A stretch of DNA of 64,000 nt from an uncultured Treponema sp. (GCA_946615905.1 CAMOIE010000001.1:44318-108317), one strand, 5' to 3'; counted from the stretch's first letter, positions 3,458 to 58,021 are shown. Notes: generated by a model from the sequence alone, not told the origin. Numbers and translations are program-made.

Positions 3458-3556
3458 GGGCGGCCCCGGCCCCTTCGGGGCCGGTCACGCTTTGCGGGGT
3501 TCCGCTTTCGCTACAATACTTCGTATCGGCTACGCCGCCCCTACAATCGTTGCCGC
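3458..3556 (-). repeat. Structured intergenic element copy A (Flavo-1-like)
   Basis: GGGCGGC...GCCGC terminal stem; internal hairpins CGGCCCC-TTC-GGGGCCG, ATAC-TTC-GTAT and CGGC-TAC-GCCG; aligns with copies B, D and E1. Confidence 0.75.
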
Positions 3557-4908: not shown

Positions 4909-5008
4909 GGGCGGCCCGACTTAGGCAAAGCCGTCGGCTGTTCCACCCTTCGCTATTCGCTCATTCGTCCGCCTTGCGTCCGAACTTCGGGGTTCCATAG
5001 CCTGCCGC
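4909..5008 (-). repeat. Structured intergenic element copy B (Flavo-1-like)
   Basis: GGGCGGC...GCCGC ends; shares CTCATTCGTCCGCCTT with copy C and GGCAAAGCCGTCGG with copy E1. Confidence 0.75.
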
Positions 5009-5054: not shown

Positions 5055-5990
5055 ATGAAAAATTCTTTTTTTAAAAATTTCAGTCCGCTTGGGCTTTTTT
5101 TGGTTGTAACTTGTATTTTAATTTGGGGATCAACTTTTGTTTCCACAAAATATCTCCTTTCTTCTCTGTCAGCACTGGAAATCCTGATTCTCCGCTTTTT
5201 GGCGGCTTATATTGCCCTTTGGATTGCGAAACCCCGAATTCTTCCATTTGTCTCTGTAAGGCGTGAAATCCTTTTTATACTTGCAGGGCTTTCAGGAATC
5301 ACCGTTTACCAGTTTTTGGAAAACACAAGTCTCTTTTTTACGTCCGCATCAAATGTATCGATTATCGTCTCTATCTGTCCCCTTTTTACGGCAATTTTTT
5401 CACGTCTTTTTCTTAAGGAAAAATCCTTGAATCCATTTTTTTTCGTGGGATTTTTTGTCGCAATCATCGGAGTTGCCCTTGTGACTTTCAATGGCAAGAT
5501 TCAAATTCATTTTAGTCCGAAGGGTGATTTGCTGGCCTTGGCCGCCGCCATAAGCTGGGGCTTTTATTCACTTGCAGTCTCAAAAGTAAATAGTCTTAAG
5601 CTAGATCCGATTTTGGCAATCCGCAGAATTTTCTTTTGGGCCTTGGTCTTCATGTTTCTCCCCGCCATGTTTTCTGGAAAATTCGATTTTTGCGCCGTGA
5701 ATTTTTTTAAATCTCCTTCTAGCTTGAATAACCTTGTCGACCCTCTAATTATCTTTAATATTTTGTTTTTAGGCTTTGGGGCTTCCGCCTTCTGCTTTGT
5801 TGCATGGAATATGGCCTGTGAGCGTCTTGGCACTGTCAAGGCAACACTTGGGATTTATTTCAACCCGCTTGTCACAGTGATTCTGGCTTTTTTCGTGCTA
5901 GGGGAAAAAATCACACTGATGGGTTTTGCCGGAATGCTGCTGACTACCGCAGGACTTGTAGTTTCAAATATTAAAAGCAAAAAAAATTGA
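5055..5990 (+). CDS. DMT/EamA family transporter
   Basis: About 10 hydrophobic segments; IWGSTF, GDLLAL and YFNPLVTV EamA-type motifs. Confidence 0.9.
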   Translation: MKNSFFKNFSPLGLFLVVTCILIWGSTFVSTKYLLSSLSALEILILRFLAAYIALWIAKPRILPFVSVRREILFILAGLSGITVYQFLENTSLFFTSASNVSIIVSICPLFTAIFSRLFLKEKSLNPFFFVGFFVAIIGVALVTFNGKIQIHFSPKGDLLALAAAISWGFYSLAVSKVNSLKLDPILAIRRIFFWALVFMFLPAMFSGKFDFCAVNFFKSPSSLNNLVDPLIIFNILFLGFGASAFCFVAWNMACERLGTVKATLGIYFNPLVTVILAFFVLGEKITLMGFAGMLLTTAGLVVSNIKSKKN

Positions 5991-16324: not shown

Positions 16325-16425
16325 GGGCGCTCCCCCTTCGGGGGCGTTCCTTCCGGGGTTTCGGTGCCCTCATTCGTCCGCCTTCGCTCCCGAACGGCTT
16401 CGCCGCCCCTCCAGCAACTAGCGCA
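16325..16425 (-). repeat. Structured intergenic element copy C (Flavo-1-like)
   Basis: TTTT-GGGCGC...CCGGGGTTTCGGTGCCCTC...CCCCTCC...GCGCAATT; colinear with copy G. Confidence 0.75.
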
Positions 16426-20859: not shown

Positions 20860-20925
20860 GGACGGAATGTAGCATTTTCTGGCAAAAAAAGAAATATTTA
20901 AAATTAGCCAATTAATCATAAATTT

Positions 20926-20992
20926 CGTCATTCTGAGCGGGCGGGCGTTGCCCGCGAAGAATCTATCTTGAGAATCTTTCGCTCAATATGAC
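20926..20992. repeat. CGTC-tagged REP-like palindromic doublet
   Basis: CGTCATTCTGAGCG-[GGCGGGC GTT GCCCG]-CGAAGAATCT...AGAATCTTTCGCTCAATATGAC; two inverted TGAGC..CGAA units. Confidence 0.7.
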
Positions 20993-21061
20993 AAAATTGT
21001 TTCAAAGTTAATCGACTATAAAAAAGCATCCCCCGTTTTTTGTTCAGGAGATGCCTTTTTT

Positions 21062-21163
21062 GGGCGCACCGACTTTCGCCGGCCGGGTGTTTCGGGGTTC
21101 GCTCACGCTCATTGTTCGGCGGCTACGCCACCTCCAACTTACGCCCCTACATACCCTTGCGCA
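21062..21163 (-). repeat. Structured intergenic element copy D (Flavo-1-like)
   Basis: GGGCGCA...CCCTTGCGCA; shares CGGGGTTC, CGGCTACGCC and CCCCTACA with copy A. Confidence 0.75.
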
Positions 21164-37661: not shown

Positions 37662-37682
37662 GTGTTAAATATAATGAAATTT

Positions 37683-37797
37683 GGGCGGTCCGGCAAAGCC
37701 GTCGGGCTATCCGCACTTCCGCTATCGCTACATTCGCGGTAGTTTCGACAAGCTCAACTTCCGCGAACGCCTTCGGCGGTGCTACTATCCCTACCGC
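37683..37797 (-). repeat. Structured intergenic element copy E1 (Flavo-1-like) with nested REP hairpin
   Basis: GGGCGGT-[hairpin]-CGGGCTATCCGCAC...GTGCTACTATCCCTACCGC; contains AGTTTCGACAAGCTCAACT at 37741-37759. Confidence 0.8.
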
Positions 37798-37807
37798 ATG
37801 AAAGCAA

Positions 37808-37915
37808 GGCTGGTAGCGGGCTGTCTGGCGGTCTCGCAGTGGCTCGACCGAGACTCGCCTACAAACTCACCTCGTGAGTTTGTTCGCCTTCGGCGACCGG
37901 CTCCCTACCTACCGC
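37808..37915 (-). repeat. Structured intergenic element copy E2 (tandem to E1)
   Basis: GGCTGGTAG-CGGGCTGTCTGG...CCGGCTCCCT..CTACCGC; hairpins GTCTCG/CGAGAC, ACAAACTCAC/GTGAGTTTGT and TCGCC-TTC-GGCGA. Confidence 0.7.
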
Positions 37916-49504: not shown

Positions 49505-49626
49505 TGCGCAAGGATTGCTGGGTGTGCGTTGCGCACACCCGACACAAATTGCTACGCAATTTCTGTCACCTTATTCGAGGCTTTTATCTGTTGCCGGAAA
49601 GCCCAGACGGCAATGCCTTTGCGCCC
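49505..49626 (+). repeat. Structured intergenic element copy F (Flavo-1-like)
   Basis: TGCGCAAGGATTGCTGG...CCGGAAAGCCCAGA-CGGCAATGCC-TTTGCGCCC; internal perfect hairpins GGGTGTGCG/CGCACACCC and AAATTGC/GCAATTT. Confidence 0.75.
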
Positions 49627-57921: not shown

Positions 57922-58021
57922 TGCGCCACGGGACCGGAGGGTTGCCGAAGGCAAGTGCAGGCGAGGCCTGCACCGAGGGCACTGAAGCCCGGAGGCCACG
58001 CTTGCAGACAGACTTGCGCCC
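57922..58021 (+). repeat. Structured intergenic element copy G (Flavo-1-like)
   Basis: TGCGCCACGGGACCGGAGGG-[TTGCC GAA GGCAA]-[GTGCAGGC GAG GCCTGCAC]-GAGGGCACTGAAGCCCGG...TGCGCCC-A7; colinear with copy C. Confidence 0.75.

Follow-up and report, generated by a model that had tools for sequence, protein, structure and literature searches.

A dispersed family of structurally covarying intergenic repeats in Treponema and other spirochaetes

Dispersed structured repeats are known from a few well-studied bacteria, and both their origin and their function are still argued. A spacer in the genome of an uncultured Treponema species raises the question in compact form: two GC-rich elements sit there side by side (positions 37683–37915), and six more stretches of the same kind lie elsewhere in the window, by which we mean the whole 64,000 nucleotides analysed (C1:44318-108317, in a 2.96-Mb genome of 47 contigs, 46.6% G+C and 96% complete). 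The original prediction took all eight for one hypervariable family under structural selection, resembling the Flavo-1 motif and mobilised by an enzyme encoded outside the window. Flavo-1 has been reported from some spirochaetes, according to its Rfam description. Are these elements one family, is a fold what they conserve, and what sort of repeat are they?

All eight stretches proved to be where they had been placed: they are intergenic, their G+C content is 54–71% compared to 45% across the window, and their predicted folding is strong (–36 to –54 kcal/mol). These islands separate housekeeping genes, identified by Pfam as carA and genes for a DctM-type transporter, glycogen phosphorylase, an EamA transporter, an M48 peptidase and an amidohydrolase. 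For one flanking protein, the closest relatives come from rumen and gut Treponema MAGs and from T. saccharophilum, which places the organism in Treponema.

We seeded a sequence HMM with five of the elements (A, B, C, D and E1) and iterated it with nhmmer, going from 25 matches to convergence at ∼110 in the genome. In addition, a covariance model (R1) was seeded with seven copies whose 3′ architecture agrees, under a structure drawn by hand; the seed was restricted in this way because MAFFT, given full copies, puts the 3′ strand of the closing helix in the wrong place. With 150 of 409 candidates scored, R1 gave at least 104 full-length genomic matches at E ≤ 0.01, and the union of HMM and R1 matches comes to at least 130 main-family copies in the genome. 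An HMM of the 3′ half had 155 matches at a permissive E ≤ 10, and a simple scan for the end pattern GCGNN...N′N′CGCCC was too noisy (291 matches, 80 of them real). A second model (R2), made from a 76-copy alignment, was used for searches of other species. One caveat here is that the models are home-made, and hence E-values are rough and copy counts are lower bounds.

The five window copies of this main family all lie on the minus strand. Copy A (3458–3556; R1 47.7 bits, E = 4.6e-7, full length) lies 1 nt past the carA stop codon, co-oriented, and upstream of the DctM-type transporter gene, while copy B (4909–5008; 59.0 bits, E = 2.6e-9) occupies the divergent spacer between carA and a gene at 5055–5990. 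Copy D (21062–21162; 54.9 bits) is found 15 nt past the glycogen phosphorylase stop codon and adjoins a bidirectional terminator (21020–21061). Copy E1 (37683–37797; 42.8 bits, E = 4.5e-6) has GCGGT/ACCGC as its closing helix, P1, and the module TTGAGCTTGTCGAAA at the tip of its hairpin P4 (37741–37759); its nearest relative, at C1:114387, is 87% identical and differs in P1 by one compensatory pair. Copy C (16325–16424; 30.5 bits, E = 0.0013) is a weak match, missed by the sequence HMM, and counts as a divergent member, with P1, P3 and the side hairpin in common with the main family and an atypical inner junction. For the other three elements, E2, F and G, R1 gave no match at E ≤ 1. The idea of a single family was thus right for A, B, C, D and E1 by the covariance model, and wrong for E2 (a second family), G (a third) and F (a singleton). 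Just upstream of the M48 peptidase gene is a weak promoter-like match, TTGCCG-17-TATATT (9/12; 37668–37696, minus strand), whose –35 region is formed by the final hairpin of E1; with 0.6 matches of this kind expected and one observed, it may be due to chance.

Read on the strand that ends in CGCCC, main-family elements are 90–150 nt long and fold into six helices (P1–P6) with two three-way junctions. P1 is a 5-bp closing helix, formed by GCGNN and by N′N′CGC at the 3′ end, with an unpaired CC tail after it. The P1 5′ strand is followed by an unpaired A, P2, a purine-rich internal loop and P3, and this arm ends in a three-way junction. The inner junction bears the hypervariable hairpin P4 (with a small GNA hairpin ahead of it in some copies), then AUGA, a short P5 hairpin (GC-GNRA-GC) and GAA, which lead into the 3′ strands of P3 and P2. 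The 3′ portion consists of GA, the side hairpin P6 (capped by a GNA or GNRA loop), the P1 3′ strand and the CC tail. To our eye, the inner junction, AAU-GA-[GC-GNRA-GC]-GA-A, looks like a kink-turn set in a three-way junction, the kink-turn pattern being a bulge of three nucleotides and then tandem sheared G-A pairs. What had been drawn for A, B, D and E1, both the ends and the layout of P1, P2, P3 and side hairpin, is correct and extends to at least 130 genomic copies. The GGGCG ends stand as well, and the T run said to precede them is a tendency, no rule: on the folding strand, A is found at positions +1 to +3 past CGCCC in 51–71% of copies, which gives the complement its T-rich 5′ side.

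Does this fold explain what varies and what does not? Across 76 copies, 93.4% of cells are paired, compared to 62.2% in shuffled controls (0 of 500 shuffles reach the observed value) and 37–40% when the partners are slid. In the model-based alignment of the same copies, 26 of 27 pairs have changes on both sides, and P1 and P3 are 99% paired with three or four pair types per position, counts to be read with the knowledge that the alignments behind them were made to fit the model. Copies that came from the sequence HMM alone are free of this dependence, and their P1 variants include GTGTT/AACAC, GGGTT/AACCC, GAGTT/AACTC, GCATT/AATGC, CTGCT/AGCAG and CGGCT/AGCCG. For 33 distinct copies of other species, pairing is 92.2% compared to 58.6%, and RNAalifold, run unaided on this set, returned the same helices P1–P6. 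Over both sets, no shuffle attained the observed pairing and slid partners gave 37–42%. The structural covariation that had been proposed is therefore far beyond chance in both sets, and it backs a consensus secondary structure in the way generally asked of an RNA family.

A comparison of nearest-neighbour copies (≥80% identical) points in the same direction. Their stem differences comprise 102 compensatory doubles versus 24 breaking and 8 G-U singles. In P1, whose strands are ∼100 nt apart, there are 32 doubles versus 2 singles, and in P3 16 versus 0, so that the pattern cannot be put down to an exchange of contiguous hairpin modules. These data show that the fold itself is what is preserved, with nearly all differences in the long-range helices coordinated on both sides. 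Primary sequence is far looser, with a median pairwise identity of 63% in the main family, nearest neighbours mostly at 70–90% and only three pairs at or above 91%. The copies are old or highly diverse, and at these identities no parent–offspring pairs are seen.

Only one strand of the element behaves as the folded form. The CGCCC strand is predicted to be the more stable in 106 of 116 copies (P = 4.5e-18; mean –48.0 versus –42.4 kcal/mol with RNA parameters), and DNA parameters gave the same outcome. Its predicted hairpins include 50 C(GNA)G triloops and 33 GNRA tetraloops, compared to none for the complement. G-U pairs make up 1.7% of cells (30 G-U versus 11 A-C, P = 0.004). The folded strand is either RNA or DNA. 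Few G-U pairs, GNA triloops and, as described below, indifference to the direction of transcription lean towards DNA; RNA is favoured by the GNRA loops, by the junction that looks like a kink-turn by eye and by the purifying selection seen at a single-copy orthologue. Two other candidates were rejected on the way. UUCG tetraloops on the GGGCG strand were ruled out by register analysis, the loops being GNA triloops and GNRA tetraloops of the opposite strand, and ARAGORN detected no tRNA or tmRNA likeness in the window.

The three remaining elements are of different kinds. E2 (37808–37915, minus strand; no match to R1 or R2) lies 10 nt 5′ of E1 and overlaps the amidohydrolase stop codon. Together the two elements occupy the spacer from that stop codon (37909) to the start of the M48 peptidase gene, co-oriented with both genes. 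By iterated nhmmer, E2 belongs to a second structured repeat family with 42 genomic copies, covarying hairpins of its own and the core TAGGGAGCCG...AGCGAGTCTCGG...GCCCCTGC. Twelve of the 42 lie within 40 nt of a main-family copy, and since 10 of these 12 are directly 5′ and co-oriented, the E2–E1 ‘tandem pair’ is a recurrent composite. G (57922–58021, plus strand; no covariance-model match) represents a third structured family, with 15 genomic copies by nhmmer and covarying hairpins in their alignment; its ends, TGCGC...GCGCCC, are similar to those of the main family, and it is antisense to both flanking genes. F (49505–49626, plus strand), a GC-rich multi-hairpin stretch between peptidase S66 and HSP20 genes, had no covariance-model match and no second copy by nhmmer, with only a 30-nt module recurring in the genome, and it falls inside a gap-free, 97.5%-identical alignment with a metagenomic contig of a related strain. 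Being ∼130 nt upstream of the HSP20 small heat-shock gene, F could be a 5′ leader element, such as an RNA thermometer; no ROSE-type Rfam match to it was found.

Smaller modules are nested within or set beside these elements. TGAGCYTGTCGAA is a conserved 13-nt hairpin loop carried on freely covarying stems (GGTGGT/ACCACC, GGTCAT/ATGACC, CGTCC/GGGTCG). This hairpin occurs 110 times in the genome, in 33 cases at the P4 or P6 tips of main-family copies, and otherwise alone or as inverted pairs within a composite of ∼110 nt; its sites in the window are 378–441 and 37741–37759. With E2-type elements beside main-family copies in 12 cases and this hairpin nested in 33, the mosaic, modular make-up that had been suspected is real, and distinct small repeat modules combine recurrently, as in BIME and BOX elements. 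Taken together, the genome holds a dispersed, hypervariable, structure-constrained modular family of ∼130 copies, much as had been foreseen, and two sister families add 42 and 15 copies. Another small repeat, (G)ATTCTTCGC-N(6-20)-GCTCAGAATGAC, adjoins main-family copies at ∼20925–20965 of the window (minus strand), in the flanks of C14:39580 and C3:38618 and in a relative (L168), and is also seen downstream of the phosphorylase gene in a congeneric species.

To place the copies relative to genes, we used a crude ORF call (2370 genes, 90% coding). Main-family copies are mostly intergenic, with 15 overlapping called ORFs; convergent spacers are enriched for them and divergent spacers depleted. 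Where the 3′ end of a gene faces a copy, the gap to the stop codon is ≤25 nt in 72 of 117 cases, equally for both orientations. In tandem spacers, 40 of 49 copies are closer to the upstream stop codon than to the downstream start (P = 9e-6). Relative to tandem flanking genes, 31 copies are co-oriented and 26 anti-oriented, and the model score does not differ between these two groups (P = 0.28); nor was any orientation bias seen relative to GC skew. Several copies directly adjoin a terminator, which may be on either side. The flanks themselves contain no consistent promoter or terminator, the 5′ profile being weak and the 3′ flank A-rich, and at none of the offsets tried do direct repeats at the junctions exceed their frequency in shuffled flank pairs, so that no target-site duplication was found. 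Nine of 130 copies lie within 500 nt of contig ends, compared to 1.6% expected (P = 3e-4), which is as expected because repeats break assemblies.

One rearrangement touches these spacers. A 2956-nt metagenomic contig (L219; 96–97.5% identical) joins the HSP20 terminator (window ∼50193) to the EamA gene (window ∼20897), indicating that the present genome and that strain differ by an inversion or rearrangement of the ∼29 kb between them; the contig does not supply an empty site. The breakpoints lie in repeat-bearing spacers, beside D (window ∼20897–20931) and downstream of F. Another contig (L220) has the same sequence as the window and so does not count as independent, and a gut metatranscriptome contained no contig over the D locus.

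We then extended the search to other species. With R2, the family was detected in 18 of 24 congeneric species, with 0, 1–14, 25–65 or >85 matches per species (lower bounds), and in all seven of the further congeners sampled. Five other Treponemataceae genera have one to three copies each. In another family of the phylum, genomes of 3.8–4.5 Mb that we take to be Leptospira (LipL32 is encoded in all four of those checked) have one to seven or more. Homologues from other genera share the ends, the core and the side hairpin, and conservation extends to the same unpaired nucleotides from Treponema to Leptospira. In one pair of Leptospira copies with alignable flanks, P3 is GGG/CCC versus GGT/ACC.

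Individual sites have different histories. The site of copy D is empty in 13 relatives, which have a plain hairpin-plus-T-run terminator past the orthologous phosphorylase stop codon. In 22 other spirochaete loci, no copy was found within 3 kb of the M48 peptidase gene, and synteny is lost there. At the one clear locus on which syntenic orthology within Treponema rests, the copy of a congener (G007; flanking proteins 68–74% identical) is ∼60% identical to that of the present genome, with P1, P3, P4a and P5 kept by compensatory changes. In three species of another Treponemataceae genus, a single copy lies 7 nt past an ABC-transporter stop codon and is 97–99% identical, compared to 82–91% at third codon positions of the transporter gene (Fisher P = 2e-5), and its three substitutions are all in loops. 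The syntenic copy and this single-copy orthologue show maintenance at resident loci, and the evidence points to long-term maintenance as much as to transposition. Outside Treponema, in a genus of Treponemataceae (L210, G115:C43), identical main-family copies at 501–608 and 2021–2128 flank an ORF of 421 amino acids, one of them 6 nt past its stop codon; either a gene and its element were duplicated in tandem, or the arrangement is a unit resembling a cassette.

No Rfam family reached its gathering score in the window, and none matched the eight elements at E ≤ 1; even at E ≤ 10, nothing at the E1/E2 locus fell on the elements, and 14 homologous loci from other genera had no match at E ≤ 1. Judged by these searches, A, B, C, D and E1 belong to what is a previously uncatalogued, spirochaete-wide family. 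The TD-1 and TD-2 motifs of Treponema denticola are likewise multi-copy orphan structured motifs, and their Rfam models have no match here at E ≤ 1.

Among known systems, the REP/BIME repeats of enterobacteria and pseudomonads, mobilised as REPINs by RAYT, come closest in behaviour. They too are intergenic, mostly just past genes and in both orientations, with hundreds of copies, mosaics with other small repeats, a single-strand fold and no target duplications. They differ in being simple 20–40-nt hairpins with a GTAG tag, often in inverted pairs, that need a Y1 (RAYT) transposase, whereas the main family has a 100-nt six-helix fold with two junctions and covarying ends, pairs with E2-type elements rather than with itself in inversion, extends across a phylum, and resides here in a genome with no RAYT gene. 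ERIC/IRU of Enterobacteriaceae and BOX of Streptococcus pneumoniae are transcribed intergenic repeats of ∼100–130 nt with stable folds, and BOX is modular (boxA/B/C), like the combinations of main-family, E2-type and nested-hairpin units. However, ERIC and BOX sequences are typically >80% conserved and form one long imperfect hairpin, compared to a median identity of 63%, near-perfect covariation and conserved junction nucleotides in the main family.

These comparisons suggest a reading to which we give about even chances: that the family is a REP/BIME-like structured repeat of spirochaetes, whose single-strand fold is under selection and which has been amplified independently by lineage. Amplification from 0 to >100 copies would have gone lineage by lineage, as for REP/BIME, ERIC or BOX repeats. 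The elements lie where they would be co-transcribed with the 3′ ends of genes, and would combine with E2-type elements on their 5′ side and with the TGAGCYTGTCGAA hairpin in their loops. The folded single strand would be the working form, either by forming a stable block of structure within 3′ untranslated regions or by serving as the substrate of a putative trans-acting protein that recognises and also copies the element. Several points weigh against parts of this reading. No apparent mechanism of spread emerged, given the lack of target-site duplications, of a Y1 transposase in the genome and of any correlation with Y1_Tnp or RVT_1; the copies are old or highly diverse; a strand-specific fold that is equally common in both orientations, with equal model scores, is hard to square with action in cis on transcripts; and a role as single-stranded DNA sits badly with the lack of GC-skew bias.

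A possible alternative, clearly less probable than the repeat reading, is that the elements encode structured small RNAs of a new class, either as genes or as modules that are processed out. The junction (AUGA, GNRA hairpin, GAA) would then bind a spirochaete protein, and the RNA would have one copy in some lineages and a very large set of paralogues in rumen Treponema. The strand-specific fold with its GNRA loops and G-A-rich internal loops fits this, as do the conservation of unpaired nucleotides from Treponema to Leptospira, the purifying selection on the single-copy orthologue and the compensatory evolution at the syntenic locus. However, the flanks offer no consistent promoter or terminator, and the element is dispensable, being absent from six of 24 congeners. 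G-U pairs, at 1.7% of cells, are unusually few for an RNA, and the core motif in context is absent from the sequences in the supplements of two Leptospira small-RNA surveys. The kink-turn resemblance, moreover, is judged by eye.

We consider it rather unlikely that the elements are purely selfish: non-autonomous mobile DNA read as a folded single strand, in the manner of REP/RAYT, IS200/IS605 ends or integron attC sites, with the fold kept only for copying. The loops are dominated by C(GNA)G triloops, a hallmark of stable DNA hairpins; G-T and A-C are both rare; target duplications and fixed terminal repeats are absent; orientation does not follow transcription; congeners have anywhere from 0 to >85 copies; the D site is empty in 13 relatives; and copies are enriched at contig ends (9 of 130 versus 1.6% expected). 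All of this is what such DNA might produce. But mobilisation by a RAYT or other HUH nuclease finds no support: the genome has no Y1 transposase (PF01797 is absent from it and from the copy-rich congeners G005, G007, G017, G020 and G023), and across 24 congeners neither Y1_Tnp nor RVT_1 is related to copy number. Young, near-identical copies and an orientation bias relative to GC skew were not seen either, and the syntenic copy and the conserved single-copy orthologue indicate selection at resident loci, which a purely selfish element would not predict. We found no autonomous form, in the sense of a split main-family version with an ORF in P4, and no carriage by phage, two pattern matches in viral contigs being no elements. 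The sole reverse-transcriptase domain of the genome lies in a 607-aa ORF (C25:38366-39085), for which a defence-type enzyme and a diversity-generating retroelement are both possible.

Integron attC sites, such as the Vibrio cholerae repeats, deserve separate mention here. They are 60–140 nt long, variable in sequence and conserved in structure, lie directly past stop codons and are recognised as one folded strand; the ORF between two identical copies at L210 is a further likeness to attC cassettes. The main family differs in having no GTTRRRY/RYYYAAC cores (P1 positions 4–5, where GTT would be expected, vary freely) and in being scattered among housekeeping genes in both orientations rather than set in a one-way array by an integrase.

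A reading that includes a terminator role is highly improbable. It draws on the elements being small, intergenic, multi-copy and often beside terminators. On the folding strand, though, the structure is followed by A and an A-rich flank rather than by the U run of an intrinsic terminator with its GC-rich stem, T preceding the element on the other strand, and relatives have plain hairpin-plus-T-run terminators at the same place. Nor do the elements look like MITEs, with their conserved terminal inverted repeats and target-site duplications: no target duplication was found, and the terminal 5 bp covary instead of being conserved (GCGGC/GCCGC, GTGTT/AACAC, GGGTT/AACCC, CTGCT/AGCAG).

That the elements are members of Flavo-1, a link that came from the likeness of a few short motifs and the reported occurrence of Flavo-1 in some spirochaetes, is almost certainly wrong: across the genome the Rfam model has four matches of 13.9–17.2 bits (E about 1–8; gathering score 42 bits), never at an element, matches at the same level in 10 of 14 unrelated control genomes, and no Rfam model matches the elements at E ≤ 1. 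Flavo-1 (RF01705; Weinberg et al. 2010, PMC2864571) is an orphan structured motif, which has been described mainly from Bacteroidota, with a few spirochaetes, and shares its orphan status with the main family, to which its 76-position model has no match.

A bolder proposal, speculative and in our view improbable as it stands, is that the family is a new functional class of single-stranded nucleic acid in Spirochaetota, and that a conserved spirochaete protein binds its conserved k-junction-like core together with the closing helix and the CC tail. One selected copy would be kept in the Treponema denticola group, and in Treponema of the rumen and gut a mechanism that reads structure, with neither RAYT nor a dedicated reverse transcriptase, would have produced >100 copies. 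If true, this would be a bacterial counterpart of a SINE derived from an RNA gene, or a new ribonucleoprotein RNA with many paralogues.

The family described here is an unusually clean case of its kind, with six helices, two junctions and near-perfect compensatory evolution. It spans two spirochaete classes, ranges from one conserved, selected copy to >100 copies, and does so where the usual mobilising enzymes are absent. Its covariance model can be used for the annotation of spirochaete genomes, in which GC-rich islands of this type break assemblies and create false ORFs. More broadly, the family offers a testable system in which repeats as selfish DNA, as transcript-end modules and as protein-binding RNAs may be weighed against one another.
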